Under the pieces are notes generated by a model, which was not told the DNA's origin, searched no databases, and saw only the letters and a program-made list of their open reading frames with translations. From Gemmatimonadota bacterium (GTDB lineage Bacteria > Gemmatimonadota > Gemmatimonadetes > Palauibacterales > Palauibacteraceae), in NCBI GenBank assembly GCA_039584685.1, contig JBDGXI010000003.1, positions 10,556-74,555 on the forward strand: a stretch of 64,000 nucleotides of DNA. The letters are read 5' to 3'. Position 1 is the stretch's first letter, and each line of letters starts with the position of its first letter. A program made the position numbers and the translations under genes. Positions 5,284 to 48,644 of this stretch are shown here, piece after piece.

Positions 5284-5286
5284 GAT

Positions 5287-10299: not shown

Positions 10300-11825
10300 C
10301 GCGAGACTCCGGTCACGCGGGCTCTCACGATGGCCGCCTCGTCGAACGGTATCCGCTCACCGGCGATGTCCTGGTACGTCTCGTGTCCTTTCCCGGCCAG
10401 CACCACGACGTCGCCGGCACCGGCATCCCGCAAAGCAGCGTCGATCGCCTCTTCCCGGTCGAGTACCACCCGGTAGGAGCCGGGGGGCATGTCGCGTGTG
10501 ATGTCGGCGCAGATATCGGCCGGATCTTCGGACCTTGGATTGTCCGTCGTAATGAAGGCCAGGTCGGCGTAGCGCGCGGCTATCTGTCCCATCAGTGGGC
10601 GTTTGCCCCGATCCCTGTCCCCTCCGCACCCGAACACGATGTACAGGCCCCCGTCAGTCAATCCGGCCAGGGTCTCCAGCACCCTCGTGTACGCGTCCGG
10701 TGTGTGCATGTAGTCGCGGAGAACGAGTGCAGGTCGATCGCACAGCACTTCCATGCGGCCGGGAACCTGAGGCGCGGTAGCCAGTCGGTCGGCGGCCACA
10801 CCCGGCTCGACGCCCAGGGCGAGCGCCGCGGTCACTGCGGCCAGCGCGTTGTGAACGTTGAACTCGCCCAGCAGCGGCAACCGCACCGGCCACTTGCCCT
10901 CGCGAGTCACCAGGTCCCAGTCGCTCCCGGCCGCCGTATGGTGCACGGCCGTGGCACGGACCTCGGCCGAGCTTCCAAGTCCATATCGAACGACTCGTCG
11001 CCCGGCAAAGTCCGCCCCGGACCAGGCCTCGTCGTCGTCGTTCACGGCACACGTACCCTCGAGACGAACCTGGTCAGCGAGACGGAGCTTGGCCGTCCGG
11101 TACGCAGCCAGATCCGGATGATAGTCCAGGTGCTCCCGCGTGAGGTTCGTATATACGCCCACGTCGAACTCCAGGCCGGCGACCCGCCTCTGATCGAGAG
11201 CGTGCGACGATACTTCCATGGTCACGAAACGGGTGCCCTCATCCCGTAGCTCGCGGAGAGTCGCCATGAGATCGAGCGGGTCCGGCGTGGTAAGGCGGCC
11301 CGGATGCCGCTCGCCGGCCGTATCGAACCACCCGAGGGTTCCCAGGGCAGCCGAAGGTGCTTCCGCGGCCAGGATGTGTCGGGTGATCAGGGCGGTGGTC
11401 GTCTTGCCGTTGGTGCCGGTGATCCCCACGAGCGAGAGCCCGGTGGCCGGGTCGCCGTGCAGCATGGAAGCCGCGTGGGCCGTGGCGGCGCGCGTATCGG
11501 ACACCACCAGCTGGGGCAGATCCGTATCCGCCTGGGCCACATCGACCAGGGCCGCGACCGCTCCGGCGGTCGCGGCCCGTGCGACGAAAGCGTGTCCGTC
11601 GAACTCGGTCCCGCGCAGTGCGCAGAACAGGATACCGGGCTGCACCTCCCGGGAGTCCGTGACAACGCCGGCGAATCCGGGCGGAGGGGTTCCCTCCCAC
11701 CGCGGAGCCAGCCCGCGCTCCTGCAGTCTGCGTTCGAGGTCTCGTGTCTGTATCACACCCGGATTCGTTTCAGCATTCCTGTTGCTCGTGGCCTCGGCTA
11801 CGCCGACCGCAGGTTTTCGGCGCAT
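10296..11825 (-). CDS. murE: UDP-N-acetylmuramoyl-L-alanyl-D-glutamate--2,6-diaminopimelate ligase
   Basis: ORF 10296..11825 (-), 509 aa. ITGTNGKTTTALI, DNPRSEDP (MurE-specific motif). Confidence 0.9.
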   Translation of the reverse strand: MRRKPAVGVAEATSNRNAETNPGVIQTRDLERRLQERGLAPRWEGTPPPGFAGVVTDSREVQPGILFCALRGTEFDGHAFVARAATAGAVAALVDVAQADTDLPQLVVSDTRAATAHAASMLHGDPATGLSLVGITGTNGKTTTALITRHILAAEAPSAALGTLGWFDTAGERHPGRLTTPDPLDLMATLRELRDEGTRFVTMEVSSHALDQRRVAGLEFDVGVYTNLTREHLDYHPDLAAYRTAKLRLADQVRLEGTCAVNDDDEAWSGADFAGRRVVRYGLGSSAEVRATAVHHTAAGSDWDLVTREGKWPVRLPLLGEFNVHNALAAVTAALALGVEPGVAADRLATAPQVPGRMEVLCDRPALVLRDYMHTPDAYTRVLETLAGLTDGGLYIVFGCGGDRDRGKRPLMGQIAARYADLAFITTDNPRSEDPADICADITRDMPPGSYRVVLDREEAIDAALRDAGAGDVVVLAGKGHETYQDIAGERIPFDEAAIVRARVTGVSR

Positions 11826-11826
11826 G

Positions 11827-13809: not shown

Positions 13810-13829
13810 CCGTGTCGCCTCGCGTCATT

Positions 13830-14210
13830 TCACGGTCCGACGTCAGGAAGGTGCAGGACCTCATCATCCATGGCGGGCCGCATTCCGAAGCGGGCCGCCG
13901 CTACCAGGATTCGCTCTCGCGACGACAGCGAATCGACACGAACGAGCTCCTCGGACTGGCGAATCCTCAGCATCTCCTCTTCCCTCTGGAGCTCGTTGAT
14001 CGATTCGGCCAGTCTTCGCCCATCGGCCGTTCGATTCACCGATACGACCAGGGAGCCGATCACCGCGGACACGCAGCCCGCCACCAGCAGTTGCCGGCGC
14101 CTTGTTCCGGGCCTCGGGCGACGGCGCCCGTTGGAGCGGGACCGGCTGCCCCGCTTCGCGGATCCACTGCCGTCCCCGGAGCGGGGCTTTCGCGACCGCT
14201 TGCCCGTCAT
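13830..14210 (-). CDS. ftsL: cell division protein FtsL
   Basis: ORF 13830..14372 (-). Basic N-terminus, one TM (LLVAGCVSAVIGSLVVSV), coiled-coil LAESINELQREEEMLRIRQSEEL. I place the start at ATG 14208-14210 because it makes an ATGA overlap with the rsmH stop. The longer form would overlap rsmH by 165 nt. Confidence 0.7.
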   Translation of the reverse strand: MTGKRSRKPRSGDGSGSAKRGSRSRSNGRRRPRPGTRRRQLLVAGCVSAVIGSLVVSVNRTADGRRLAESINELQREEEMLRIRQSEELVRVDSLSSRERILVAAARFGMRPAMDDEVLHLPDVGP

Positions 14211-15145
14211 GCCCGAGCCCATCCGCGGAGCCTCGCGCTCCGCGCCCGTGGATTCGCGGCTACTTCCGCTTCCGACGGACGCAGAGGCTTCTTCGTCAGC
14301 CGGCGCCCCAGGGCCCGACCCCGGCACTTGCAGATCGGCCACTCCGGTGGGCAGACACATTCTCGACTCCACTCCCGGAACGTCTCTTTCACGATTCGAT
14401 CTTCCAGTGAGTGGTACGAGATGACGACCAGCCGCCCCTCCGTCGCGAGCAATTGCCCGATGGCTTCCAATCCCTCACGCAATGCTTCCAGCTCTTCGTT
14501 TACGGCGATCCGAACGGCCTGGAACAGGCGCGCCTTGTCCCTCTGGGCCAGGGGTCTCCGGAGCGCCGCCGAGGCAGCCGCGACGAGATCATCCGCGCTG
14601 CGCAGCGGTCGCTGCCCCCGGCGCCGGGCGATCTCCCGGGACATGGCCCGCCACTTCCTCTCCTCCCCGTAGTCCCGGAAGATCTTCCCCAGCTCTTCTT
14701 CAGACGCCGTGTTCAGCAAATCGGCCGCGGTTCTCCAACCACCGGTTGTCCCGCCCATCCGCATGTTTAACGGTGTGCCCCGGCGGAAGGAGAAACCGCG
14801 CGCCGTCGTGTCGATCTGGTGGGACGACACGCCCAGATCCAGCAGGGCTCCATCCAGACCGACGTCTATGTATTCCTCGACCAGCTCCGCAGCATCGCGG
14901 AAGTTCCCTGTCACCAAGCGTGCCCGATCTCCGAACACGGAGAGTCGCTTCCTGGCTGCGGCCACGGCTTCAGGATCCTGGTCCAGGCCGATCAGCGTCG
15001 CCGCTGGACTCGATTCCAGAATCCGTTCCGCGTGTCCCCCTCCGCCAACCGTGGCGTCGAGGAACTGCCCTCCCCGTTCTGGTTCGAGCAACCTCACCGT
15101 CTCATCCGCCATTACCGGGTGGTGCGAGAATGGCTGCCCACTCAT
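14207..15145 (-). CDS. rsmH: 16S rRNA (cytosine1402-N4)-methyltransferase
   Basis: ORF 14207..15145 (-), 312 aa. LDATVGGGGHAERIL (SAM-binding), DLGVSSHQID. The gene after mraZ. Confidence 0.9.
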   Translation of the reverse strand: MSGQPFSHHPVMADETVRLLEPERGGQFLDATVGGGGHAERILESSPAATLIGLDQDPEAVAAARKRLSVFGDRARLVTGNFRDAAELVEEYIDVGLDGALLDLGVSSHQIDTTARGFSFRRGTPLNMRMGGTTGGWRTAADLLNTASEEELGKIFRDYGEERKWRAMSREIARRRGQRPLRSADDLVAAASAALRRPLAQRDKARLFQAVRIAVNEELEALREGLEAIGQLLATEGRLVVISYHSLEDRIVKETFREWSRECVCPPEWPICKCRGRALGRRLTKKPLRPSEAEVAANPRARSARLRGWARA

Positions 15146-15175
15146 GTGTTCACCCCGGCCATTCCCGTCCGCCGA

Positions 15176-15607
15176 TCAGGCGAAGATGCCGGCCAGTCGA
15201 TCCCCGAAGTCGTCTCCCGTATCGGTCGTGACCTGAGCGAACCTCTCCGGATCCCAGATCTCGATCTTGTCTATCGCGCCCACTACCTGCGCCTCGTCGC
15301 GGATGCCGGCGCCGGTACGCAGTCGGTCAGGAATCAGAATGCGGCCTTGTTTGTCGGGTACGACCTCGATCGCGTTCGCGGTGAGGGCGAGCATGCGGTG
15401 CCGCGAGCGCGGAGCACTTCGCACGAGGGTGCGGAGGCGCTCCTGCACCTGGGTCCAGGTATCGTGCGGATACAGGGTGAGGGCATCGGGCTGAGCTTGA
15501 ATCAAGACGAACGACTGGGCCTCGCTGTCCCGGCGAAAAGCCGCCGGAAGCGTGACCCTGCCCTTCTCGTCTACCTGATACAGGTAGCTCCCGAGGTAGC
15601 CGCCCAA
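15176..15607 (-). CDS. mraZ: transcriptional regulator MraZ
   Basis: ORF 15176..15607 (-), 143 aa, TTG start. MGGYLGSYLYQVDEKGRVTLP and a second DKQGRILIP half, which is the duplicated MraZ fold. First gene of the dcw cluster. Confidence 0.9.
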   Translation of the reverse strand: MGGYLGSYLYQVDEKGRVTLPAAFRRDSEAQSFVLIQAQPDALTLYPHDTWTQVQERLRTLVRSAPRSRHRMLALTANAIEVVPDKQGRILIPDRLRTGAGIRDEAQVVGAIDKIEIWDPERFAQVTTDTGDDFGDRLAGIFA

Positions 15608-15640
15608 TTCGCACCGCCACTTTCACGCAGGAAGGAGATA

Positions 15641-15720
15641 TCCCCACAGTTCTCCACTTTTCCCCACAGGGCCCCATTTTATGTGTCCGATTCTCATAGC
15701 GCAACCCCGGTTCCCCACAG
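15641..15720 (-). promoter_or_regulatory. three identical TCCCCACAG 9-mers (CTGTGGGGA on the mraZ strand) in the mraZ leader; candidate MraZ operator
   Basis: Exact 9-mer at 15641-15649, 15661-15669 and 15712-15720 (spacings 20 and 51 bp). MraZ is known to bind direct GTGG(G)-containing repeats in its own promoter. No binding data are available for this lineage. Confidence 0.45.
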
Positions 15721-15739
15721 CGGCTCCCGGATGCCAGAA

Positions 15740-15768
15740 GCCCGGCGGAACACGTGGTTCCGCCGGGC
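15740..15768 (-). terminator. perfect 12-bp GC-rich hairpin (GCCCGGCGGAAC-acgtg-GTTCCGCCGGGC) downstream of the TPR gene
   Basis: Inverted repeat read directly. Lies between the TPR stop (15830) and the mraZ promoter region. U-tract weak (TTCTGG on the minus strand), so it is a hairpin-only terminator or an RNA structural element. Confidence 0.45.
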
Positions 15769-15786
15769 TTCACTTCGAGCGTCCCC

Positions 15787-15805
15787 GGGGGCCGAGGGCC
15801 CCCGT
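15787..15805 (-). terminator. 8-bp GC hairpin CGGGGGCC-gag-GGCCCCCG immediately after the TPR gene stop
   Basis: Perfect palindrome read directly. No U-tract. Confidence 0.3.
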
Positions 15806-15829
15806 CAGGTACCTACCGTCGGGGGGAGA

Positions 15830-17581
15830 TCAGCCTCCGCAGTTCTTTCGGATGATCTGCTCCTGCCGATAGATGTACACGTCAGTGCTCTCGCGGATCT
15901 GCGCCTGGCTCTGCGGCTGTTCGGCGCCGGCCCGGTCGAGGTTCGGGAGAACCTGCTGGAACTTCGACAGCGCGCGGCGGGCCGGCTGGCACGCCTCGTT
16001 CGCCTCGTTCGCCCCGTCGATCGATACCCCCTGCTGGTAGTAGCCGTAGGCCGTGAAGAAGTACAGCTGGTCTCTTACCCGGCCGGCGCTTGCCAGATCG
16101 GTGCCGACCTCGAACATCGCGAGCGCCTCGTCATACCGTCCGGTCTTGAAGAAGTCGTTGTAGCCGCGCGCCAGCAATTGGCCCGCCACCACCTCGACAT
16201 CCGCTCCCTGTGCGACCGCGGTTTCGAGGTCCGCCGTTCCTCCCTGCGAATCGCCGGAGCGAAGCTTCAGGAAGCCGCGCCTGAGATACGCGTTCGGGTA
16301 AGCCGGATCGAGTTCGAGCGTTCGATCCAAGGCCGCGACCGCGTCGTCGTACCTCTCCATGCGCCCGTAGATGTCGCTCCGGATCGACCACAGGCCGGCG
16401 TCCTCCGGCATCAGGGCCTGAGCCCGGTCCGCGAACGTGAGCGCAGCATCGAAGTCACCAAGTTCCAGGTTCGCGGCGATCACGTTGCGGAGAATCTCGG
16501 GATTCATGTCTTCTCCCTTGAGCTCCAGAACGTGGTCGTAGGCTTCGACCGCGAGTCGAACGGCCGCTTCGTCCGCTATGGCACCCGTATCCTCCATCGC
16601 GTCCTCCGCCGCCGTCGTGCCCTTCTTGAGCGCCACGTTGCCGAGGAACTCCCACAGCTCGGCGTTCGTCGAATCGATCGCGATACCTTCCTGCAGGAGA
16701 TCGATGGCCTCGTCCTCGCCGCCCGCCTGAGCGAGCTCGAAAGCGACCGTCATGCGAACGCTCGCATCCGCGGGATTGAAGTTCAGGTACTCCCGGTAGA
16801 GCTCGACCGCGCGCTCCATGTCGCCCATCTGGGCGTAGACGTACGCCAGGGCGTTCAGGGCATCTACCTCGGCCGGGTTCTTCTCGATCACGATCGCGAG
16901 GTCGTCCGCAGCCTCCGTCCAACTCTCCAGTCCCATGTACACGCGCCCGCGCAGGTAATGCCCGGTGGTGCTCTCGGCATTCGTGCTCAACGCCTCGTCG
17001 CAGTTGCGAAGAGCGTCGTCATACTGCTCGGCCGCGAGGTAGTCCTGGCAGAATAGAAGAGCACGCCGATAGTCCACCTGGTCGCTGAACGCGGTCACGA
17101 TCACGCCGGACGCCTGTCTCACGTCATCATTCCCGTCGCCGGGAACGATGAAGCCCGGCACGTCGACCTCGTCACCGCTCTTGGAATCTACGAAGCTGAC
17201 GCTGACCTCGTTCCCGCCCGCGGCAGAGGCGACACCGCCCGTCATCACGACATCCGCATTGAGACGTCCGGCGAGCTGTCTCCACTGGATGAGGCCGAGA
17301 TCCTCTTCCTTCAGCTTCAGCCGGCGCAGCTCATCCTTGACTTCGTTCCAGTCGATGGCGATGAGCGTCGGAATCTCCTCCAGGCCGTCCCGTACCTCTT
17401 CGGCGATCTTCTTGCCGAAGTCCTTTTTGACGGAACCGTCGACCTGCAGGGGAGCCACTAGCACCCGGGCTCGACCGCCCGCGCCGCCATCCTGTGCCAC
17501 GGCGGTGCCAGCGGCAAACACGAGTGAGGCAGCCGCAACGGCCAGGCCTTGCCCGCCCCAGTAACGAATCGCACGCTTCAT
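15830..17581 (-). CDS. secreted tetratricopeptide-repeat (TPR) protein
   Basis: ORF 15830..18031 (-), but the real start is the internal ATG at 17579-17581 (MKRAIRYWGGQGLAVAAASLVFAAGTAVAQ signal peptide, GAGGA SD 8 nt upstream). The upstream part of the ORF reads through the tRNA-Val gene. The body contains multiple TPR-like repeats (AEVDALNALAYVYAQMGDMERAVELYREYLNFNP...). Confidence 0.75.
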   Translation of the reverse strand: MKRAIRYWGGQGLAVAAASLVFAAGTAVAQDGGAGGRARVLVAPLQVDGSVKKDFGKKIAEEVRDGLEEIPTLIAIDWNEVKDELRRLKLKEEDLGLIQWRQLAGRLNADVVMTGGVASAAGGNEVSVSFVDSKSGDEVDVPGFIVPGDGNDDVRQASGVIVTAFSDQVDYRRALLFCQDYLAAEQYDDALRNCDEALSTNAESTTGHYLRGRVYMGLESWTEAADDLAIVIEKNPAEVDALNALAYVYAQMGDMERAVELYREYLNFNPADASVRMTVAFELAQAGGEDEAIDLLQEGIAIDSTNAELWEFLGNVALKKGTTAAEDAMEDTGAIADEAAVRLAVEAYDHVLELKGEDMNPEILRNVIAANLELGDFDAALTFADRAQALMPEDAGLWSIRSDIYGRMERYDDAVAALDRTLELDPAYPNAYLRRGFLKLRSGDSQGGTADLETAVAQGADVEVVAGQLLARGYNDFFKTGRYDEALAMFEVGTDLASAGRVRDQLYFFTAYGYYQQGVSIDGANEANEACQPARRALSKFQQVLPNLDRAGAEQPQSQAQIRESTDVYIYRQEQIIRKNCGG

Positions 17582-17603
17582 ATTTCGGTCCTCAGCTGTT
17601 CCA

Positions 17604-17634
17604 CTTCGAAAACGGGGCGCATTTTTCCCCGCGC
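17604..17634 (-). terminator. weak hairpin + T-tract after tRNA-Val (minus strand CGGGG-aaaaatgcg-CCCCG-TTTTCG)
   Basis: Read from the sequence. 5-bp stem only. Confidence 0.25.
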
Positions 17635-17692
17635 ACTCATTACGACACTCGATTGCGGCGGATTGTTCCTCGTTCCGCCGCCCCGTCACACA

Positions 17693-17767
17693 TGGGCGAA
17701 GCTGGATTCGAACCAGCGACCTCCTGCTTGTAAGGCAGGCGCTCTGGACCAACTGAGCTATTCGCCC
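17693..17767 (-). tRNA. tRNA-Val (anticodon TAC)
   Basis: Minus-strand 75-nt sequence GGGCGAATAGCTCAGTTGGTCCAGAGCGCCTGCCTTACAAGCAGGAGGTCGCTGGTTCGAATCCAGCTTCGCCCA folds as a cloverleaf. 7-bp acceptor stem GGGCGAA/TTCGCCC, D-stem GCTC/GAGC, anticodon stem CCTGC/GCAGG with loop CTTACAA (U33, anticodon TAC, A37), T-stem GCTGG/CCAGC with loop TTCGAAT. CCA is not encoded. Confidence 0.9.
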
Positions 17768-18042
17768 TCGCCGGCCCGGTCGCCTCGATCGGCGCGGAAT
17801 CCGAGAAGCAGTCCCGCGGGAATCAGTACCACGTATCCCGCGAACAGAAGAAGCGGCGCGAGGACGACCGAGCCTCGATCCAGGAGGAGATATCCAAACA
17901 AAATGACCACGGCTCCGACTGCAAGGAGAGCCGCGTTTCTTCTCCCCAGCAAGCCGAACAGCCGTGGACGGTGAGCGCCGTCGCCGGCTTCGCCTCCGCG
18001 GTTCCCGTTCATCGCGGAAGGATACCCCCAAATCGAATTCAA
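17758..18042 (-). CDS. small membrane protein (2 predicted TM helices), hypothetical
   Basis: ORF 17758..18042 (-), 94 aa. Two hydrophobic helices (LLAVGAVVILFGYLLL, VVLAPLLLFAGYVVLIPAGLLLGF). ATGA start overlap with the stop of the upstream HExxH protein. Its last codons overlap the 5' end of tRNA-Val by ~10 nt. Confidence 0.5.
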   Translation of the reverse strand: MNSIWGYPSAMNGNRGGEAGDGAHRPRLFGLLGRRNAALLAVGAVVILFGYLLLDRGSVVLAPLLLFAGYVVLIPAGLLLGFRADRGDRAGEGE

Positions 18043-28015: not shown

Positions 28016-28915
28016 CTACCGGGGCGCGGAGACTTCGTCAACGCGATTCAAAACGCCCGCTTCGCTTCCTTCCGGGACTACACCGGTTCGGGCCGCCGGG
28101 TCCAGGGTAGGTATCGCGTCCGACTCCTTCAGCAGAACCTCTTCCTCGCCCCCCGCCTCCAAGCGAGCCTGCAGATCGTCGGGCCGAAGCCCGCGATGCA
28201 GAATTCCTCTATGGGCCAGCGAGATCTGACCGGTCTCCTCGGAGATCACCACGACCAGGGAATCGGTCTCCTCGGACAGGCCGAGGGCCGCTCGGTGCCT
28301 GGTGCCGAGAGCCCGATCGAGGGCCGGAGATTCCGACAGCCTGAGGATCACGGACCCCGCGTACGCTACCTGGTCTCGCCGAACGATCACCGCGCCGTCG
28401 TGCAGCGGAGAGTACGGAGTGAAGATCGTGGTGAGGAGCTCGGCGGTGACCTGCGCGTTGATCGGTGTCCCGTGATCCACGTGATTCGCCAGGTCCACCT
28501 GGCGCTCGATCGCTATGATTCCGCCGATCTTGGCCTTCGCCAACCGATCCGAGGCCCGCACGATTTCCTCCACCACCTCCTGTTGCTCGCGACGCGCGAA
28601 CAGCTGGAACAGTCGGGAGCGGCCCAGGCGCGCCAATGCTGCCCGAATTTCCTGCTGGAAGATCACGATCAGCGCGAATGCGCCGTAGGTGAAGACCTGC
28701 GAGAGAATGTACGGAATGAGCCTGAGGCCAGCCGCCTGGGACAGTACGTATACCGAGACCAGGAATACGAAGCCGAGCAGTACCTGGAACGCCCTCGTTC
28801 CCGTGTACATGAGCAGGATGCGGTAAACCAACCACGCGACGATCAGGATCTCCGCAAGATCCTTCCACGCGAACTGGTCGAGCAGGAATCCCAGGTAGTC
28901 GAGTATCGCGCTCAT
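28016..28915 (-). CDS. cdaA: diadenylate cyclase CdaA (c-di-AMP synthase)
   Basis: ORF 28016..28960 (-). Internal Met at 28915 (MSAILDYLGFLLDQFAWKD...). Three N-terminal TM helices then the DAC domain (GAVIVRRDQVAYAGSVILRLSE, TRHRAALGLSEETDSLVVVISEETGQISLA). Follows folP as in the conserved ftsH-folP-cdaA cluster. Confidence 0.85.
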   Translation of the reverse strand: MSAILDYLGFLLDQFAWKDLAEILIVAWLVYRILLMYTGTRAFQVLLGFVFLVSVYVLSQAAGLRLIPYILSQVFTYGAFALIVIFQQEIRAALARLGRSRLFQLFARREQQEVVEEIVRASDRLAKAKIGGIIAIERQVDLANHVDHGTPINAQVTAELLTTIFTPYSPLHDGAVIVRRDQVAYAGSVILRLSESPALDRALGTRHRAALGLSEETDSLVVVISEETGQISLAHRGILHRGLRPDDLQARLEAGGEEEVLLKESDAIPTLDPAARTGVVPEGSEAGVLNRVDEVSAPR

Positions 28916-28925
28916 GCGAGGCCGC

Positions 28926-29798
28926 TCAGGTCCCGGCGCAGCGTATGGCCCACGCGACATCCAGGGCCCGGCGGACCTGCAGCACGTCGTGGACTCGGAA
29001 CAAACGGGCTCCCCTCTCCAGGGCGGAAAGGCACGCCGCGACCGTGCCCTCCAGCCTTTCCCCTGCGGGCACGCCCAGGAGCGTCCCGATGAAGGACTTC
29101 CGCGACGGTCCCACGAGAACCGGACGACCGAGATCGAGAAGCCGCCCGATCCCGGCGATCAGCTCGATATTGCCCTCGGTCGACTTCCCGAAGCCGATGC
29201 CGGGATCCACCACGAGCTGTGCGGGCGCGCAGCCGTGGTCATACGCGACACGCATGGACCGCCCCAGCTCGTCGCTCACTTCACCTACCAGGTCACCGTA
29301 ATCCACATCGTCCTGCATCGTGCGCGGCGTCCCCCGCATGTGCATCAGTATCAGGCCGGTCCCGGCCCGCGCGGCGACGTCAGCCAGGGCGGGATCGTTG
29401 CGGAGGCCCGAGACGTCATTGAGCACTGCGGCACCGCCGTCCACCGCACGCTCGGCCACACCGGCCTTCGACGTGTCGATGGATGTCCCGATCCCGCGGA
29501 GAGAGAGTCCCTCGACGACGGGGCCGATCCGTTTCCACTCCTCAGCCGCATCGACCGGGGCAGCGCCCGGCCGAGTGGACTCGCCCCCGACGTCGATGAG
29601 ATCCGCACCGGCCTCGACCATCTGCTCTGCCCGGGCGAGAGCCGCTCCGGAGTCGGCATATCTACCCCCATCCGAGAAGGAGTCGGGGGTGAGATTCAGC
29701 ACTCCGAGCACGATGGGCCGATCCGTGCGAATCTCGTGGTCCCGAATCATCCACCGATCGGGATCCGCTGCCACCAGAGCACCCGGGCCCGCTACCAC
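28926..29798 (-). CDS. folP: dihydropteroate synthase
   Basis: ORF 28926..29798 (-), 290 aa. LGVLNLTPDSFSDGG, DVGGESTRPGA, GIGFGK. The start could be the internal Met at 29750. Confidence 0.85.
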   Translation of the reverse strand: MVAGPGALVAADPDRWMIRDHEIRTDRPIVLGVLNLTPDSFSDGGRYADSGAALARAEQMVEAGADLIDVGGESTRPGAAPVDAAEEWKRIGPVVEGLSLRGIGTSIDTSKAGVAERAVDGGAAVLNDVSGLRNDPALADVAARAGTGLILMHMRGTPRTMQDDVDYGDLVGEVSDELGRSMRVAYDHGCAPAQLVVDPGIGFGKSTEGNIELIAGIGRLLDLGRPVLVGPSRKSFIGTLLGVPAGERLEGTVAACLSALERGARLFRVHDVLQVRRALDVAWAIRCAGT

Positions 29799-29803
29799 CG
29801 GAA

Positions 29804-31792
29804 TCAGGCCATCGCCGGTGATGGCTCTCCCCCCGTGTCCTCGAGGGGAGATTCACTCGATCGTCGGGCTTCAGGTGCGGGAGGAAGGACCGGTGCGGGC
29901 GCCGGCGTCATGTCCTTCAACGGCGGCAGTTCACCTCCGTCCTCAAGGATGCGAACATCCTCGAGGTCCAGCGTCTCACGCTCGAGCAGCGCCTCCGCGA
30001 TCGCGCCGAGCAGATCACTGTTCGCAGTGAGCACCTCCTCCGCCTTCGAGTACGCTTCATCCAGCATCCGCTTGATCTCGCTGTCCACCAGTTCCGCGGT
30101 CTTATCAGACACGTCGCGGCGCTGGCTTATCTCCCGGCCCAGGAAGATCTCGTGGTCCTGCTCACCCACCGCGATAGGACCGAGCACGTCCGACATGCCG
30201 AACTGAGTGACCATGCGCCGGGCGATCCCGGTCGCCCGCTCGATGTCGTTTCCGGCGCCTGTCGTGATCTTCGACGGTCCGAAGATCATCTCTTCCGCCA
30301 CCCGGCCGCCGAACAGCATGACCAGCTGCCCCTGCAGCCACCCCTTGGTGTAGTTGTGGCGGTCCTCCTCGGGCAGCGAGGCCGTGATGCCCAAAGCCCG
30401 TCCGCGCGGCATGATGCTGACCTTGTGGAGCGGATCCAGCCCTGGCACGCGCCGAGCGATCACCGCGTGACCCGCTTCGTGGTACGCCGTCACCCGTCGC
30501 TCTTCATCAGAAATGACCATGCTGCGCCGCTCGGCACCCAGCATGACCTTGTCCTTGGCGGAATCGAAGTCATCCATATACACCCGGTCCTTATCGTGCC
30601 GGGCGGCCAGAAGAGCGGCCTCGTTCACGATGTTGGCCAGGTCGGCCCCGGACAGGCCCGGCGTGCCTTTGGCCAGGACCTTCAGGTTGACGTCGTCCGA
30701 CAGCGGGATCTCTTTAGTGTGTACCCTCAGTATCCCCTCGCGTCCGTTCACATCGGGAAAGTCGACCACGATCTGGCGATCGAAACGCCCCGGGCGAAGG
30801 AGAGCCGGGTCCAGAACGTCTGGCCGGTTCGTCGCGGCCAGCAGGATGACACCCTCGTTGGATTCGAAGCCGTCCATCTCCACGAGGAGTTGATTCAGGG
30901 TCTGCTCCCTCTCGTCGTGCCCGCCGCCGAGCCCGGCGCCGCGGTGCCGACCGACCGCATCGATCTCATCGATGAAGATGATGCACGGCGCGTGCGACTT
31001 ACCCTGCTCGAACAGGTCCCGGACGCGGCTCGCTCCGACGCCCACGAACATCTCGACGAAATCCGATCCGCTCATCGAGAAGAAGGGGCGCCCCGCTTCG
31101 CCGGCCACGGCCCTGGCGAGCAGTGTCTTCCCAGTTCCAGGCGGCCCCACCAGCAGGGCTCCCTTGGGAAGCCGTCCTCCCAGGCGCCTGAACTTCGCCG
31201 GGTCCTTCAGAAACTCGATGATCTCCTCGAGCTCTTCCTTGGCCTCATCCGCGCCTGCCACGTCGACGAAAGTCACCTGCGGCGTATCACCGGTGAGCAG
31301 CTTGGCCTTGGACTTCCCGAAGCTGAACGCCCGCGAGCCGCCGGCCTGCATCTGCCGGAAGAAGAAGAACCACAGGCCTATGATCAGGATCCACGGTAGA
31401 ACCGAGATCAGGTAGTTGACCCAGTTCGCGCCCGTCTCCTCCGCCTTCACCTCGACGCCCGAGGCCTCGAGTCCATCGATCAGCTCCTGGCTCGCCTCCA
31501 AGGGCAGCAGCGTGTGGAACTGCTCGACCGGTTGGCCGTCGACCTGCATGGGGGTCCGCAGCTCGCCTTCGACCTTGCGAGCTTCGGAAAAGGTGACCGA
31601 GCGAACGTTGTCGCCCTCCAGCTGCTCACGGAATTCGGTGTACGTGAGCTCCCGCTCCAGCTGGCGGCTGGTCTCCATCACCTGAAATATGGCCAGCGGA
31701 ATAAGGATCACCAGCGCCCAGAAGGAAGCCGTGCGCAGAAAGCGACCCGTCTTCAGATCCTTGTTTCCGTCGTCCGGACTCGTCTTAGCCAC
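29804..31792 (-). CDS. ftsH: ATP-dependent zinc metalloprotease FtsH
   Basis: ORF 29804..31792 (-), 662 aa. Two TM helices, [18 protein letters not shown] (Walker A), SRF, HEAGHAV zinc motif. Confidence 0.95.
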
Positions 31793-40364: not shown

Positions 40365-41012
40365 CTAGTCTTCGATTCGATCGGCCATCTCGAGAACGAG
40401 CGACCCGGCGTCGACGTCGAACCGCTCCACCCGCCCCGGGATCGGAAGCAGAACCGTAACCCCCGTCGTCTCGACCCCCGGCATCTCGATGCTTTCCAGG
40501 ATCCACGGAACCATCATCGAGGGCACTACGATGGATCCCGCCTGCAGTGTCACCACCTCGACCCGGGCGACCCCCGGCTCCACCACCCCGGGCCACAACT
40601 CTACGACGACGCTGGCCGAATCGGAGAGCAGCCTCTCGACCACCTCCGGAGAGGCCAGTCCCTGCAGACCTCTCGGGTCCACCCGCGCCGACAGCAGGAA
40701 CGTGCTGTCCCTGACCTCCACGAGCGGCTCGCTGATCCCCTCCGGAAGCAGCGGCGCGGCCCGATACGTGAGCAGGCTCTGGATCTCCGCCTGGCTCAAT
40801 CTGAGGTCCGTCGGGCGATCCGCCGAGGCCATTCCCCGGAGCTTGTCGGCTGCGCGCCGGGCGAGGTCCTCGCTGGGCTCCGACGAGGCGGTGATCTCGA
40901 GCTGCCTCCACCATCCCGCGATATCCTCGCGAAACCACCACCCGCCCCCGACGACGACCACGATCAGAGTGAGACAGCCGATCCGTGCTAGACAGTTCTT
41001 GATCATCTCCAC
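40365..41012 (-). CDS. hypothetical membrane-anchored protein (N-terminal signal anchor, periplasmic domain)
   Basis: ORF 40365..41012 (-), 215 aa. CLTLIVVVVGGGWW anchor. No recognisable motif. High-GC3 coding frame between thpR and lepB. Confidence 0.55.
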   Translation of the reverse strand: MEMIKNCLARIGCLTLIVVVVGGGWWFREDIAGWWRQLEITASSEPSEDLARRAADKLRGMASADRPTDLRLSQAEIQSLLTYRAAPLLPEGISEPLVEVRDSTFLLSARVDPRGLQGLASPEVVERLLSDSASVVVELWPGVVEPGVARVEVVTLQAGSIVVPSMMVPWILESIEMPGVETTGVTVLLPIPGRVERFDVDAGSLVLEMADRIED

Positions 41013-41035
41013 CCCCGGGCGAGCGCTCCGAACGC

Positions 41036-41602
41036 TCAGCTGCGCGGCCCCATCCGGGCCGCGACCAGCCTGGTGTGCAGGGCGCCCGCGGCTCCCAGCT
41101 GACTCTTCATGAGATCAATGTGCGTGACCCGGTACGTGTCCGTTATCTTGAGCGATCTGGCCACTTCCTCCAACCGCCGGAACTCACCCGCTTCGGCCTC
41201 GCGTGGCGCCCGGCCAAGAGTGACGTGCGGCTGATACGGCCTTTCCTCGCGCGGGATCCCGAGTTCGGCCAGGCGCCGCTCCAGGTCGTCCTTGATGAAT
41301 CGAAGCTCCGGAGTCGGCTCGACCCCGAGCCACACCACGCGCGGGCGTCGCGGAGAGGGGAAGGCGCCGATCGGCCCGAACCTCAGTTCGAACGGACGGA
41401 ATCTGCCGGCCACTTCCTCCAGCGCCTCCGAGATCGGCTCGACCTCGATCGCCGGAACCTCGCCGATGAACTTGAACGTGAGGTGCACCTTGTCCGGCTC
41501 GGTCCACCGTGCGGGCACTCCCGCTTCCTGAAGCGGGCCGCACAGCCTGGCGATCTTCTGCCGTAATCGAGCCGGAAAATTCACGGCAACGAAGAGGCGC
41601 AT
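41036..41602 (-). CDS. thpR: RNA 2',3'-cyclic phosphodiesterase (2H phosphoesterase, ThpR/LigT)
   Basis: C-terminal 188 aa of ORF 41036..42691 (-), starting at MRLFVAVNF. Two H-x-T-x motifs (HLTFKFIG and HVTLGR). The upstream 360 codons of the ORF are antisense to queD/pabB and are not coding. Confidence 0.8.
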   Translation of the reverse strand: MRLFVAVNFPARLRQKIARLCGPLQEAGVPARWTEPDKVHLTFKFIGEVPAIEVEPISEALEEVAGRFRPFELRFGPIGAFPSPRRPRVVWLGVEPTPELRFIKDDLERRLAELGIPREERPYQPHVTLGRAPREAEAGEFRRLEEVARSLKITDTYRVTHIDLMKSQLGAAGALHTRLVAARMGPRS

Positions 41603-41782
41603 GAAACCTCGCTTCCGTTTGCTTCGGTCGTTCCCGCCTGCAGAGACATTCCCTCCTCCGACAAGCTGGCCCACGGCCCGCGGGGGCGGCAAGACCGCCA
41701 CGCGAACGTGACGGGATGCGCCTCCGTCCGAAGACCTGTACGATGGGGGAGATCCCGGAGTGTCTGACCCCGAGAAGCGCAG

Positions 41783-42280
41783 GTGTCGATGACCGATTAC
41801 AGAGTCGCAGTGGGCAAGGAGGCGCTGGTGTTCGCGGCGGCCCATTTCATCACGTTCGGCCGCGGCGGATGCGAGCCGCTGCACGGACACAACTACCGCG
41901 TAGGGGTGACTCTGGCCGGAGACCTGGACCGCCACTCCATGGTGTACGACTTCGTGGCGCTCCGAAGGGACATGCAGGCGATTCTCGCGGAACTCGACCA
42001 TCGGGTCATCCTGCCGCAATCCAACCCGGACCTGGAGGTGGAGTCGTCGGACGAGCAGGTGGAAGTGCGGCACGCCTCCCGGCGCTACGTGTTTCCCCGC
42101 TCGGACGCAGTCCTCCTCCCCGTCCCCAATACGACAGCCGAGAAGCTTGCCGAGTACCTGGGCGGTCGTCTGGAAACTCACCTTCGGCGAATCCGGACGG
42201 GCGAGCTTCAGCACCTCGAGGTGGAGGTGGAGGAGACGCCCGGCCAATCCGCCTTCTGGATCAGGGAACCGGGTCCCTGA
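41783..42280 (+). CDS. 6-pyruvoyl-tetrahydropterin synthase family protein (COG0720; QueD/PTPS-III-like)
   Basis: ORF 41783..42280 (+), 165 aa. Zinc/active-site motif GGCEPLHGHNYRV with adjacent Cys and Glu. Followed directly by pabB-pabA. Confidence 0.8.
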   Translation: MSMTDYRVAVGKEALVFAAAHFITFGRGGCEPLHGHNYRVGVTLAGDLDRHSMVYDFVALRRDMQAILAELDHRVILPQSNPDLEVESSDEQVEVRHASRRYVFPRSDAVLLPVPNTTAEKLAEYLGGRLETHLRRIRTGELQHLEVEVEETPGQSAFWIREPGP

Positions 42281-42299
42281 AGATCGGCTCCGTGACCCC

Positions 42300-43772
42300 G
42301 TGAACGGTGACAGAAACTTGCCGCTCGTGAAGGAAGTGAGCGAAGCGCCTTCCCCGGAAGACCTGTTCACCGGCCTGGCGGGTGAGCCGTGGGTCCTGTG
42401 GCTCGATACGGCTCTCCCGGGCCGGGAGTGGGGCCGGTTCTCGTTCCTCGCCGTGGACCCGTTCCGGGTGTTGCGCGGGCGTGCCGGGCGCTCGGAGTGG
42501 ATCGGGCCGAGCGGGGTTCGGTCGGCGCCCGGCGATCCCATCACGGAGCTCCAGAGCGCCCTGGCCCGCCACCGTCTCCCGCCGCGTGAGGACCTGCCTC
42601 CGTTCTGTGGCGGAGCGGGCGGCATGTTCGGATACGAGCTCTCCGGCGATCTGGAAGCGATCCCGGTGGCGGCCTGCCGGGACCTCCGCACTCCGGACCT
42701 CGAGCTGGGTCTTTACGACCTCGTGGTGGGGTGGGACAGGCAGGAGGACCGGTGCTGGATCGCCTCGACCGGCGCATCGGATGGGAGCGTCGCCGCCTAC
42801 GAGAGCGCCGCCTGCCGCCTGGCGCGAGCCGAGACCTGGTTGCAGGGGGGTCCAGCGCCCGCCGACCATCGTGTGCCCGGCGGGTCGGGGCTTCGACTCG
42901 ACGCTACGCCCCCACCTTCTACGTACCCGGTGCCCGGCTCGCCCGGGTTCCGCTCCACGTTCTCGCCGGCCGGGTATCGCGGCGCCGTGCGACGCGCCAT
43001 CGAGTGGATCCGTGCCGGGGACGTCTATCAGGTCAATCTGTCACAGCGCTTCGAGACCCGGTCCGAGGAAAGTCCGGCGGACCTGTACCGCAGACTTCGC
43101 GTCGCCAGCCCCGCCCCGTTCGGCGCCTATTTCGCGGGAAACGGCTTCTCCGTCCTCAGCACGTCGCCCGAGCGCTTTCTGCGACTGACTTCCTCGGGGG
43201 AAGCACAGACGAGGCCGATCAAGGGGACGCGGCCGCGGAGTGATGATCCGCTCGAAGATCGACGGCTCGCCATCGAGCTCGAGGCGAGTGTCAAGGACCG
43301 CGCCGAGAACCTGATGATCGTCGATCTCCTCCGCAACGACCTGTCTCGCGTGTGCCGGCCGAGCTCGGTGCGCGCCGTCGATCTGTTCAGGGTCGAGTCC
43401 TACCGGACCGTGCATCATCTCGTATCCACGGTCGAAGGCCGGCTGCGGGAGGGACGGGTGGCAGCGCATCTGCTCAGGGCGACGTTCCCGTGCGGCTCGG
43501 TCACCGGCGCCCCCAAGATCCGGGCCATGCAGATCATCTCGGAGCTCGAGCCCGTGGCCCGTGGTCCCTACTGCGGCGCCCTGGGGTACATGGGTTTCGG
43601 CGGTGACATGGACACGAGCGTCTCGATTCGGATTGCGGTCGCCACGGAAGGCCGGATCGTCTTTCACGCCGGTGGCGGCATCGTGGCGGATTCGGACCCG
43701 GAGGCGGAGTACGAGGAAACCCTGGACAAGGCGCGGGCCATCGTCACGGCCGTCTCCGGGACTCGGGCATGA
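42300..43772 (+). CDS. pabB: aminodeoxychorismate synthase component I (chorismate-binding enzyme; PabB/TrpE family)
   Basis: ORF 42147..43772 (+). I chose the GTG at 42300 just after the queD-like stop. Chorismate-binding domain (SPERFLRL, GAPKIRAMQIISELE, GGGIVADS). Lacks the TrpE LLES feedback motif and is followed only by a glutamine amidotransferase, so pabB is favoured over trpE. Confidence 0.75.
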   Translation: MNGDRNLPLVKEVSEAPSPEDLFTGLAGEPWVLWLDTALPGREWGRFSFLAVDPFRVLRGRAGRSEWIGPSGVRSAPGDPITELQSALARHRLPPREDLPPFCGGAGGMFGYELSGDLEAIPVAACRDLRTPDLELGLYDLVVGWDRQEDRCWIASTGASDGSVAAYESAACRLARAETWLQGGPAPADHRVPGGSGLRLDATPPPSTYPVPGSPGFRSTFSPAGYRGAVRRAIEWIRAGDVYQVNLSQRFETRSEESPADLYRRLRVASPAPFGAYFAGNGFSVLSTSPERFLRLTSSGEAQTRPIKGTRPRSDDPLEDRRLAIELEASVKDRAENLMIVDLLRNDLSRVCRPSSVRAVDLFRVESYRTVHHLVSTVEGRLREGRVAAHLLRATFPCGSVTGAPKIRAMQIISELEPVARGPYCGALGYMGFGGDMDTSVSIRIAVATEGRIVFHAGGGIVADSDPEAEYEETLDKARAIVTAVSGTRA

Positions 43773-44416
43773 TCGTCCTGCTCGACAATTACGACTCGTT
43801 CGGTCACAACCTGGCCCGGTACCTCGAGCAGCTCGGCGAGCGAGTCGAGGTAGTCCGCAACGACGCCACCGATGTGGAGGGCCTCCTGTCACTGACCCCG
43901 ACGCACGTCGTCATTTCGCCCGGCCCGTGCACTCCCGCGGAGGCGGGGATCGCCGTGGACCTCGTTCGCGCCTGCTCTTCAGGGATTCCGGTGCTCGGCG
44001 TGTGTCTCGGGCACCAGTGCATCGGGGCTGCCTTCGGCGCCCGGATCGTGCGAGGCGATCCCGTGCACGGAAAGATCTCACGCATCCGGCACGAGGAGCA
44101 GGACCTGTTCGCCGGGCTGCCGTCGCCGCTCGCCGTCACGCGGTACCACTCGCTGGTCATCGATCCGGAGACGCTGTCGCCCCACTTGACTCCCACGGCC
44201 TGGACCGCGGGTGGCGTGCTGATGGCTCTCCGGCACCGGACACTGCCCATGTGGGGCGTCCAGTTTCACCCGGAGGCGGTCCTCACCGCGTGCGGCCACG
44301 CCCTGCTCCGCAACTTCCTCGCCCTGGGCAGGAGCGCGCCGCCTCCGGGGCTCGCTCCCGGGCTGCCTGCGCCCGAGTCACCCATCATGTCCTCCGTCGG
44401 CCCGCCGGAGGCCTGA
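43769..44416 (+). CDS. pabA: aminodeoxychorismate/anthranilate synthase component II (class I glutamine amidotransferase)
   Basis: ORF 43769..44416 (+), 215 aa. ATGA overlap with pabB. GVCLGHQ catalytic Cys, HS...FHPE. Confidence 0.85.
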   Translation: MIVLLDNYDSFGHNLARYLEQLGERVEVVRNDATDVEGLLSLTPTHVVISPGPCTPAEAGIAVDLVRACSSGIPVLGVCLGHQCIGAAFGARIVRGDPVHGKISRIRHEEQDLFAGLPSPLAVTRYHSLVIDPETLSPHLTPTAWTAGGVLMALRHRTLPMWGVQFHPEAVLTACGHALLRNFLALGRSAPPPGLAPGLPAPESPIMSSVGPPEA

Positions 44417-44460
44417 CCGCGCGAAGTCGGGAGACCGTCATCTGGCCTGGCCGGCGGCGG

Positions 44461-45996
44461 TCAGGGCGCGCGGTCCCGCACGCGGAACTGCAGGGCTTCA
44501 GCGACGTGCTCACAACGGATACGGTCCTCACAGGCCAGGTCGGCGATCGTACGCGAGACCCGAAGCACCCGGTGACACGCTCGCGCGCTGAGGCGGAATG
44601 CTGACGATCCCCTGTGCAGAATGGTGTCCGCCTCGGGACCCAGTTGACAGTGGTCGCGGATCGCCCGGGGCGGCAGTCGGGCGTTCAGCAGAGCCGGCCG
44701 GCCGGATCGTCGGTTCGCTCTCCTGCGGGCAGCGCGCACGCGCTGCTGCATGGCCGGACTCTCGAGAGCGCCCGGACCCGCCCGAAGCACGCTCCACTCG
44801 ACAGTCGGAACGTCCACGTGCATGTCGATTCGGTCCAGGAGAGGAGCGCTGAGTCGCGCAGCATGACGCCGCACGGAAGCAGGATCGCAATCGCAGGATC
44901 GATCGACTTCGGTCAGCCGGCCGCAGCGGCAGGGATTCATGGCGCCCACCAGCAGGAAGCACGCCGGGTAGCAGACCTGGGCTCCGGCCCTGGTGATCCG
45001 CACCTTGCCTTCTTCCAGCGGCTGTCGCAGCGCCTCCAGCGCGGAGGCCCGGAACTCGGTGAGCTCGTCGAGGAACAGGACGCCGTGATGCGCGAGCGAG
45101 ATCTCTCCTGGCTGGACGGGAGCTCCACCCCCGACCAGGCCGACACGGGTAATCGAATGGTGCGGCGCCCGGAACGGTCGGTTCTCGAGCAATCCGGCTC
45201 CAGCCGGCAGTCGGCCCGCTACGCTGTGCACCGCGGTGACCTCGAGCGCCTCCTGCCGTGTGAGGGGAGGCAGAATGGTAGAGAGGGCCCGCGCCAGCAT
45301 CGTCTTGCCGACCCCGGGGGCACCGCGGAGCAAGACGTTGTGGCCACCCGCCGCGGCGATCTCCAGGGCGCGCTTGGCCGCCCGCTGACCGGCTACCTCA
45401 GCGAAGTCGTGCGAGTTGCCGCCCGGCGATGCGGACGGCCCCGGTCCGGTACCCACCGCCACGAGATCCTCTTCGCCGCGCAAGAACTCCAGGACCTGCT
45501 TCAGGCTGCCGGCGCCCAGCACTCGCAGATCGTGCGCCGCGCGGGTCTCTCCCAGGTTGGCCTCGGGCACGATCAGTCCGTCGAGTTCGTCCATCCGCCC
45601 GAATCGCAGTGCAATGGGCAGAGCGCCGCGAACAGGACGGATGGTCCCGTCGAGCCCGAGCTCTCCCACGAAGCCCCACCGGCTCACTCTCTCTCCGGGA
45701 ACGTGGCCAGCGCCCGCGAGAATGGCTATGGCGACCGGCAGGTCGAACGCCGCCCCCTCCTTTCGCAGATCCGCCGGGGCCAGATTGACGGTGATCCGCA
45801 GTCCAGGCACGCGCAGACCGAGCTGAGCGGCCGCCGAGCGGAATCTCTCCCGGCACTCGCGTGCGGCGGACGGCGCGAGGCCCACGATCCCGATCATGGG
45901 GGTGCCCCGCCGAATTGCCACTTCGACCCGAACCGGAATCGCCTCCAGGCCGAGCAACGCCGCGCTGAATGCCGTCTGAACCGTGCCCTGGACCAT
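44461..45996 (-). CDS. comM: YifB/ComM-family Mg-chelatase-like AAA+ ATPase
   Basis: ORF 44461..46023 (-), 520 aa. N-terminal Lon-like domain, LLRGAPGVGKTMLARAL Walker A, HGVLFLDEL Walker B, C-terminal Mg-chelatase domain. Start at Met10 assumed. Confidence 0.85.
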   Translation of the reverse strand: MVQGTVQTAFSAALLGLEAIPVRVEVAIRRGTPMIGIVGLAPSAARECRERFRSAAAQLGLRVPGLRITVNLAPADLRKEGAAFDLPVAIAILAGAGHVPGERVSRWGFVGELGLDGTIRPVRGALPIALRFGRMDELDGLIVPEANLGETRAAHDLRVLGAGSLKQVLEFLRGEEDLVAVGTGPGPSASPGGNSHDFAEVAGQRAAKRALEIAAAGGHNVLLRGAPGVGKTMLARALSTILPPLTRQEALEVTAVHSVAGRLPAGAGLLENRPFRAPHHSITRVGLVGGGAPVQPGEISLAHHGVLFLDELTEFRASALEALRQPLEEGKVRITRAGAQVCYPACFLLVGAMNPCRCGRLTEVDRSCDCDPASVRRHAARLSAPLLDRIDMHVDVPTVEWSVLRAGPGALESPAMQQRVRAARRRANRRSGRPALLNARLPPRAIRDHCQLGPEADTILHRGSSAFRLSARACHRVLRVSRTIADLACEDRIRCEHVAEALQFRVRDRAP

Positions 45997-47847: not shown

Positions 47848-47924
47848 CTCTGGCAGGTGCAGCGAACGCGGCTGGAACCGGCGGTACCGTTTCCTCGCCG
47901 GCACCAGCGCGTAGATTGGTTCGT

Positions 47925-48644
47925 ATGCCACTGAGCACAGAAGCTCCGTTCGTCGCGCGCCTGGATCGCCTCACCTGGCCCGAAGCAGCGGCCTGGTTCC
48001 GACGCGATCCGCGGCTCCTCCTGCCGGTCGGGACGTGCCTGCAGCACGGTCCCCATCTTCCCCTGGGTTCCGACACGATCGTGGTCGAGCGCCTCGCGGA
48101 GGCCGTATCGGAGCGAACCGGTATCCTGGTTGCCCCGACCCTCGCGTACGGCGTCAGCTCCGACCTGGAGCAGGACTACGCCGGAACTGCGGCCCTGGAG
48201 CGAAAGACGCTCCACCGGGTATTGAACGAACTGGTGGATTCGTGGGAGCGGCAGGGCCTGGAGGAGATCATCCTCATCACGGCTCATGGATATGGCCCTC
48301 ACATCCAGGCCATGGCAGCAGTCGTGGCGGATTTCGTGCGCGTGCGGGCGGTGGATATCCACGCGATCGATCTTGCGGCGTTTCTCCAGGGGGGGGCCGG
48401 CCCCGAGCACGCTGGCGAAATGGACACGGCGATTCTGCTCCACCTGGCCCCGGAGCTGGTCCGGAGTGACCTGGTGGCGGACGGCGAACCGCGCGAGAGG
48501 GTGCGATCGGCGATCCGGGACGAGCCGGTGCCGCCGCCCGGGTCGCCTGGCGTGGTGGGGCGACCGAGTCTGGCGACACGGGAGAACGGCAGGCGCATAT
48601 GCGAGTATCTCGTTGACTACATCTCGAGGCGGCTGGATGCGTAG
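47925..48644 (+). CDS. creatininase-family amidohydrolase
   Basis: C-terminal 239 aa of ORF 46974..48644 (+), starting at ATG 47925 (MPLSTEAPFVARLDRLTWPEA...LLLPVGTCLQHGPHLPLGSDT...ITAHGYGP...). Conserved metal-ligand pattern of the creatinine amidohydrolase fold. The upstream 317 codons are antisense to eamA and are not coding. Confidence 0.75.
   Translation: MPLSTEAPFVARLDRLTWPEAAAWFRRDPRLLLPVGTCLQHGPHLPLGSDTIVVERLAEAVSERTGILVAPTLAYGVSSDLEQDYAGTAALERKTLHRVLNELVDSWERQGLEEIILITAHGYGPHIQAMAAVVADFVRVRAVDIHAIDLAAFLQGGAGPEHAGEMDTAILLHLAPELVRSDLVADGEPRERVRSAIRDEPVPPPGSPGVVGRPSLATRENGRRICEYLVDYISRRLDA

Follow-up and report, generated by a model that had tools for sequence, protein, structure and literature searches.

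The question raised by this locus is whether a gene of the COG0720/6-pyruvoyl-tetrahydropterin synthase (PTPS) family, found directly upstream of pabB and pabA in a Gemmatimonadota bacterium, belongs to queuosine synthesis (as QueD) or takes the place of dihydroneopterin aldolase (FolB) on the way to folate. The stretch of DNA analysed (64 kb of contig JBDGXI010000003.1, assembly GCA_039584685.1; hereafter the window) has a G+C content of 66%, and its closest relatives are metagenome-assembled genomes (MAGs) of Gemmatimonadota. The most likely function of the PTPS protein, judging from its sequence and surroundings, is the conversion of 7,8-dihydroneopterin triphosphate (DHNTP) to 6-hydroxymethyl-7,8-dihydropterin (6-HMDP); the enzyme would probably be co-expressed with aminodeoxychorismate (ADC) synthase and feed the dihydropteroate synthase, FolP, encoded in the same window.

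A PTPS gene with a combined CExxHGH motif

The longest reading of the PTPS open reading frame (ORF; 41783..42280, forward strand) starts at a GTG at 41783 and gives 165 amino acids, the length stated in a preliminary description of this DNA. An ATG at 41789 yields a protein of 163 residues and is the likelier start because nearly all homologues have that length; the gene is accordingly placed at 41789..42280 (+), and the shorter numbering is used here. The product contains the PTPS domain PF01242 (E = 6.4e-24; 84.7 bits against a Pfam cut-off of 22.4). In translation, its zinc-site stretch reads GGCEPLHGHNYRV, and the protein bears AAAHFITFGRGGCEPLHGHNYR, with Cys at -4 and Glu at -3 relative to the first His of HGH. 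The adjacent Cys and Glu pointed out in the preliminary description are therefore present, and the motif, GGCEPLHGH, combines Cx3HGH and Ex2HGH into CExxHGH.

When 86 bacterial orthologues (those of the fetched loci described below and that of the window) are aligned, Cys-Glu occupies these two positions in 85 sequences and Ser-Glu in one; counted by species-level locus, the figures are 79 of 80 and one. The Glu, found in all 86, is thus a constant feature of the orthologues. The zinc-binding His triad (H19, H32 and H34) is invariant or nearly so, and the segments AAHF(I/V)T, HGHNY, LDH(R/K)xLLP and VEExxGQ are almost fixed. CExLHGH is also found in nearly all of the best 120 database homologues (down to about 52% identity), a few having AE or LE and one CD. 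Judged from these alignments, the CE motif is no chance feature, and the Cys is a family trait kept even in lineages where the gene has a plainly folate context.

Assignment to the PTPS-III class

Subfamily definitions were taken from later open-access summaries (PMC5041015, PMC3223725). The signatures given by Zallot et al. (PMC5041015) are CxxxHGH for PTPS-I/QueD, CxxxxxHGH for PTPS-II, ExxHGH for PTPS-III and CExxHGH for hybrids of types I and III, which are reported to be active in both the folate and the queuosine pathways. The window protein has the QueD-type cysteine, four residues before the first His, and its Cx3HGH spacing is not the Cx5HGH of PTPS-II.

Placement with PTPS-III can also be made independently of the motif, from sequence, residue register, fold and the QueD threshold. 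In a phmmer search against PDB sequences the protein matched the PTPS of Plasmodium vivax (E = 1e-20) and of P. falciparum (1.5e-18) over residues 15-158. The QueD entries scored between 1e-4 and 1e-3 (E. coli QueD, 1e-4), QueD and animal PTPS together spanning 1e-6 to 1e-3, and the alignments to both were confined to the N-terminal half. The Plasmodium enzymes (PDB 1Y13 and 2A0S), with which the PTPS-III type was founded, belong to the same length class and align end to end with the 163 residues at 27-29% identity, sharing the His triad, the LDH motif and a C-terminal Glu. The window Glu pairs with that of the P. falciparum sequence GFRETLHGH, Glu38, which corresponds to Glu37 of P. vivax in 3M0N and 3LZE, two entries named "catalytic residue mutant". 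The P. falciparum enzyme converts DHNTP to 6-HMDP, and its E38C mutant loses this product (Dittrich et al., PMC2229834). The residue before the Glu differs, being Cys in the window protein and Arg in Plasmodium, and the window gene, unlike its Plasmodium counterparts, is bacterial and lies in an operon with pabB and pabA.

An AlphaFold2 model built on 39 homologues (mean pLDDT 91.3) gave the same picture at the level of the T-fold. Foldseek returned template-modelling (TM) scores of 0.87 (2a0s) and 0.83 to Plasmodium PTPS over all 163 residues, and query-normalised scores of 0.52-0.57 for E. coli QueD (PDB 4NTK). QueD shares with the window protein its superfamily, the zinc-binding HGH and the Cx3HGH cysteine, but measures only about 120 residues; the window protein is some 40 residues longer, carries a Plasmodium-type insertion and has the additional Glu. 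Against the QueD equivalog model TIGR03367 (NCBIfam) it scored 70.4 bits, below the cut-off of 89.25. In a neighbour-joining (NJ) tree, all of the 80-plus orthologues fell into one clade with Plasmodium PTPS, far from QueD.

Four lines of evidence (the motif, the match to Plasmodium in sequence and fold, the sub-threshold QueD score, and the gene context seen in several phyla) thus point to the PTPS-III or dual I/III class, as the preliminary description had proposed, and not to plain QueD; this predicted membership is well supported. The PTPS-III family itself is known, having been described between 2008 and 2012, and the present case leaves knowledge of the family unchanged.

An operon with pabB and pabA

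The PTPS gene ends with a TGA at 42278-42280, and the in-frame GTG of pabB follows at 42300. The spacer is 19 nt, one less than previously counted, and the close spacing is real. The pabB gene (42300..43772, +; 490 amino acids; component I of ADC synthase) is joined in turn to pabA (43769..44416, +; 215 amino acids; the glutamine amidotransferase, component II) by a 4-nt overlap, ATGA, of stop and start. The pabB product contains the Pfam domains Chorismate_bind and Anth_synt_I_N, and TIGR00553 (pabB; 348.9 against a cut-off of 328.4) is the sole NCBIfam model whose threshold it passes, all trpE models remaining under theirs (trpE_most, 376 against 517.7). The lysine of PIKGT is present in its translation, and orthologues of the gene adjoin pabC or are fused to it (a PabB-Aminotran_4 protein in locus L074; pabB-pabA-pabC in L011). 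PabA was recognised by Pfam GATase (1e-54) and by TIGR00566, trpG_papA (210 bits against 121).

The operon layout claimed at the outset is therefore real, and the arrangement recurs independently in other lineages. It follows from the layout that one operon delivers a pterin precursor together with the first committed step towards the precursor of p-aminobenzoate (pABA).

Gene contexts of the orthologues

Neighbourhoods were compared at 80 species-level loci fetched from GTDB genomes, in which neighbours were identified with tblastn probes and checked with Pfam, the PTPS ORF being forced into the gene set. Close relatives (57-91% identity) retain thpR, in divergent orientation, followed by PTPS-pabB-pabA. 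This synteny says little on functional coupling because the entire 20-kb neighbourhood is conserved; it was discounted as evidence of coupling, and distant lineages were used instead.

The PTPS-pabB-pabA order is the context of the window's own clade. Altogether, pabB lies within 500 nt downstream at 8 of the 80 loci, in three arrangements: that of the window's clade, PTPS-PCD-pabB (L064, L076 and L086, PCD standing for pterin-4a-carbinolamine dehydratase), and a pabB-pabC fusion in the Rokubacteria locus L074. In other Gemmatimonadales and Gemmatimonadaceae the characteristic neighbour is PCD (Pterin_4a, PF01329), found within 100 nt at 16 of 80 loci and followed by pabB-pabA in L064 and L086 and by pabB in L076. 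These PCD-adjacent loci are L012, L017, L019-L021, L023, L025, L027, L030, L032, L037, L064, L067, L069, L076 and L086. In Chloroflexota the order is PTPS-folK(-folP): folK is directly downstream at ten loci, seven of them in this context, and folP follows it in six of the ten. Clustering with folate-pathway genes is thus seen as pabB-pabA in the window, as folK(-folP) at 10 loci and as pabB at 8. In Pirellulales and their relatives a CitG-like gene is found immediately upstream (24 of 80 loci, when those of the islands described next are included).

The last context is an archaeal-like island for one-carbon (C1) metabolism, which surrounds the orthologue in the Rokubacteria L065, L070 and L074, in L052 (NC10), in a Planctomycetales MAG (L066) and in the Gemmatimonadota L011 and L039; L052, L065 and L070 supply the three remaining loci with folK downstream. 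The genes occur in the order fhcC, mch, RimK-like/Orf5, CitG-like/Orf7, PTPS, in some cases HPPK, HisA-like/Orf17, an ATP-grasp ligase and a hydantoinase-like gene. In L011 the island (2810-16204) continues with a short-chain dehydrogenase/reductase (SDR), PCD, a DUF6513+Pterin_bind protein, pabB, pabA, a class-IV aminotransferase (pabC) and DUF447, and Pfam recognised MCH, CitG, ATP-grasp_3, Hydantoinase_A, SDR, Pterin_4a, DUF6513+Pterin_bind, PabB, Aminotran_4 and DUF447. Pfam likewise identified RimK, the PabB-PabC fusion directly after PTPS, an SDR and DUF6513/PterinBD in L074 (285-11420), and HPPK directly after PTPS in L052. Such genes constitute the recognised "archaeal-like" cluster for tetrahydromethanopterin (H4MPT) and methylofuran (PMC8141765; PMC5020050). 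Searches of the literature brought up nothing that connects COG0720 with the H4MPT islands of bacteria. The PTPS clade is an integral part of these islands, together with PCD, SDR and the DUF6513 pterin-binding protein, and this is the more interesting lead to come out of the comparison.

The NJ tree of the orthologues tracks taxonomy and not gene context; they therefore form one vertically inherited orthologous group that has been wired to different downstream users. Every informative context involves the making or use of 6-HMDP and pABA.

The bacterial PTPS-III proteins and I/III hybrids of Pribat et al. (2009) and Phillips et al. (2012), described in the summaries PMC5041015 and PMC3223725, have in common with the present group the CExxHGH motif and the clustering with folate-pathway genes, and the group is present in Chloroflexi and Planctomycetes, phyla from which folB is reported to be absent. 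Gemmatimonadota are not named among the PTPS-III or I/III phyla in these summaries, and it was the present comparison, not the Pribat and Phillips papers, that revealed pabBA as an operon partner and H4MPT islands as a context.

A separate observation concerns Dehalococcoidia and other Chloroflexota without an adjacent folK. There, a Cys-rich protein of 181 amino acids that matches no Pfam family is encoded directly after PTPS (L022, at 10579-11124, L058, L059, L060, L077 and L081) or one gene further on (L038). This protein is a candidate partner in the pterin pathway.

Folate and the alternatives

In the proposed mechanism, the zinc-dependent T-fold enzyme would take DHNTP, the product of GTP cyclohydrolase I, and cleave its side chain to 6-HMDP, the Glu of CExxHGH presumably acting as the catalytic base. 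FolB, which belongs to another family and is only a distant T-fold relative (Foldseek E about 5e-3), stands at the same step of the pathway and forms the same product after dephosphorylation; its substrate is dephosphorylated dihydroneopterin, whereas the window protein is predicted to be zinc-dependent and would act on the triphosphate. The PTPS protein would then replace FolB in the cell as the sole source of 6-HMDP. Its gene would be transcribed together with pabB and pabA, as the 19-nt gap and 4-nt overlap suggest, and FolK followed by the window's FolP would join the pterin and pABA into dihydropteroate, folate being the presumed end product.

The folP gene (28926..29798, reverse strand) was recognised from its translation and with a probe that also recovers the Pfam-confirmed FolP halves of FolK-FolP proteins. 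It sits about 12 kb from the operon, in the region 28016-31792, where ftsH and a gene for a CdaA-like diadenylate cyclase flank it, in the order tilS-hpt-ftsH-folP, with no folB or folK alongside.

Neither the window nor the Pfam-annotated flanks of close relatives contain a second COG0720 gene, queC, folB or folK, and an E. coli FolB query matched nothing in the 64 kb or in the regions flanking the 86 loci, a result that applies to those stretches only. That PTPS-III can replace FolB was validated for one eukaryote and eight prokaryotes (PMC3223725), and many Chloroflexi and Planctomycetes, two phyla that carry this orthologous group, reportedly have no folB (PMC4674097). The conserved Cys may leave room for a second activity of the QueD type, by analogy with what is reported for I/III hybrids.

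Several points weigh against 6-HMDP synthesis for folate. A canonical folB may exist elsewhere in the genome, and the PTPS enzyme may be redundant. Orthologues lie inside an H4MPT/methylofuran island at seven loci in four phyla, including the Gemmatimonadota L011 and L039, and since the L011 island also contains pabB-pabA-pabC, the module could serve methanopterin. The near-invariant Cys is left unexplained by a pure PTPS-III mechanism, given that Plasmodium has Arg there. The P. falciparum enzyme makes 6-pyruvoyl-tetrahydropterin as well (PMC2229834), and the neighbour in Gemmatimonadaceae is PCD, not a folate gene. Finally, no enzymology of this bacterial clade was found in the literature covered, which did not extend to the original papers of Pribat (2009) and Phillips (2012). 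The preliminary description took the pabB-pabA operon as support for a folate role, and the folK, folP and pab contexts in several phyla agree with this; yet a module of PTPS and pabBA is no proof of a folate-only role, because the same group sits in H4MPT islands in Rokubacteria, NC10, Planctomycetota and some Gemmatimonadota.

The operon might thus supply precursors for tetrahydromethanopterin (dH4MPT) instead of, or besides, folate, with 6-HMDP passing to a methanopterin-type enzyme resembling dihydropteroate synthase (DHPS) and the pABA made through PabBA to ribofuranosylaminobenzene phosphate (RFAP) synthase. A single enzyme can serve both pathways, so that neither role excludes the other. 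6-HMDP diphosphate (6-HMDP-PP) and pABA are precursors common to both cofactors, and if an H4MPT island exists elsewhere in the lineage, the operon would feed both. This is a real rival, and the island loci are what recommend it: orthologues of 45-50% identity are placed between CitG-like/Orf7 and HisA-like/Orf17 at L011, L039, L052, L065, L066, L070 and L074, near mch, fhcC, RimK-like, ATP-grasp ligase and hydantoinase-like genes (confirmed by Pfam in L011, L074 and L052), within a cluster already recognised as archaeal-like (PMC8141765), and the CitG-like gene upstream extends to further loci, mostly of Pirellulales. On this view the window cluster would have become separated from such an island. 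Against this, no gene for mch, fhcC or a CitG-like, RimK-like, hydantoinase-like, HisA-like or DHPS-like protein was detected in the 64-kb window, and no island gene within 10 kb on either side in the window's clade. Moreover, the window carries an ordinary folP that needs exactly these two precursors, and in Chloroflexota the orthologues stand beside folK-folP, with surroundings free of island genes. We consider H4MPT supply by this operon rather unlikely, and give the same low standing to the stronger proposition that PTPS-pabB-pabA is a detached remnant or working part of a bacterial H4MPT module and the CE-type clade the dedicated 6-HMDP synthase of the archaeal-like C1 islands of Planctomycetota, Rokubacteria/NC10 and Gemmatimonadota.

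Lower still stands the possibility that the protein is a plain QueD (6-carboxy-tetrahydropterin synthase) serving queuosine/preQ0, in which the Cys would be catalytic and the Glu and pabBA incidental. In its favour, 85 of the 86 orthologues have the Cys, which is placed as in QueD, one public source labels a homologue "6-carboxytetrahydropterin synthase", and activity in both pathways is reported for I/III hybrids (PMC5041015). The equivalog score, the length of 163 residues with its Plasmodium-type insertion, and the weak structural match all speak to the contrary. Neither the window nor the flanks of the 86 loci, about 1.4 Mb, gave a match to an E. coli QueC probe, and no que gene occurs among the Pfam-annotated neighbours of close relatives, in agreement with the earlier remark that no queuosine genes are nearby (queE and queF were not probed separately); at least four phyla have pterin and pABA genes next to the orthologue. 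Score, architecture and context together make it unlikely that the protein acts as QueD only. The least probable reading of all seems to be a conventional PTPS, whose product, 6-pyruvoyl-tetrahydropterin, would go into a biopterin-like cofactor, with PCD as the recycling enzyme. This reading draws on the PCD genes within 100 nt of the orthologue, which occur mostly in Gemmatimonadaceae and Gemmatimonadales, on the SDR-PCD pair of L011 and L074, and on the double product of the P. falciparum enzyme (PMC2229834). But the window contains no PCD, neither PCD nor SDR adjoins the gene in the window's clade, the PTPS-II motif (PMC5041015) is lacking, PCD is often followed by pabB-pabA or pabB (L064, L076 and L086), and PCDs of COG2154 also have roles unrelated to biopterin (PMC3223725). 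The sole hint of a biopterin-type role is the PCD gene beside the orthologue in other Gemmatimonadota, a neighbour that is missing in the window.

Neighbouring genes and other features of the window

Upstream of the operon and divergent from it lies thpR, which encodes an RNA 2',3'-cyclic phosphodiesterase (41036..41602, -; TIGR02258, 144.9 bits against a cut-off of 65.7). The coordinates bear out the divergent arrangement and the shared region of 180 bp reported earlier. Among the 80 loci thpR is found next to the PTPS gene in the window's own clade only; it was rejected as a functional partner, its adjacency being confined to this syntenic clade, and the divergent arrangement is lineage synteny only.

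Within the intergenic region (41603..41788), the short blocks ACAAGCTGGCC, GGCAAG, GTACGATGG and GGAGTGTCAGAC are kept across the window's clade (seven loci, aligned by eye). They are probably the two promoters and a leader. The same alignment by eye shows a conserved -10-like TACGAT at 41739..41744, a putative promoter to be taken as a lead only. No riboswitch or leader RNA in the 180-bp region was matched in Rfam at E <= 1, and a promoter and terminator scan of 41000..44700, which used the E. coli consensus, gave no match.

A creatininase-family gene (PF02633, E = 1.5e-52; 47922-48644, +) is located 3.5 kb downstream of the operon, in a position conserved in relatives. The creatininase family includes pterin- and riboflavin-related deformylases, and a link of this gene to the operon is hypothetical. 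Elsewhere in the window, the sole Rfam match at gathering level is a tRNA (17693..17767, -); the N-terminal part of a provisional ORF at 15830..18031 is spurious, because the tRNA lies within it. Translations alone identified a full division and cell wall (dcw) cluster at 1904-15607 (-), comprising murB, murC, murG, ftsW, murD, mraY, murF, murE, ftsI, a small ftsL-like gene and mraZ.

Significance

Gemmatimonadota are a common and poorly cultured soil phylum, in which a PTPS-III or I/III type protein appears not to have been discussed before. Public sources label such proteins QueD or generic PTPS, a likely mis-annotation that the present assignment would correct, and in reconstructions of the folate pathway of Gemmatimonadota the FolB step would be filled. 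The locus provides a clean link, at the level of an operon, between the pterin and pABA branches. Were the operon instead part of an H4MPT module, the lineage of the window would make methanopterin-type cofactors, or its ancestors did, and the range of C1 metabolism linked to H4MPT would come to include Gemmatimonadota, which do not figure in the 2016 list of phyla with H4MPT-island genes (PMC5020050). One orthologous group accompanies folK-folP in some phyla and lies in methanopterin/methylofuran islands in others, a dual wiring that affects metabolic models in which the use of C1 cofactors is inferred from gene presence.

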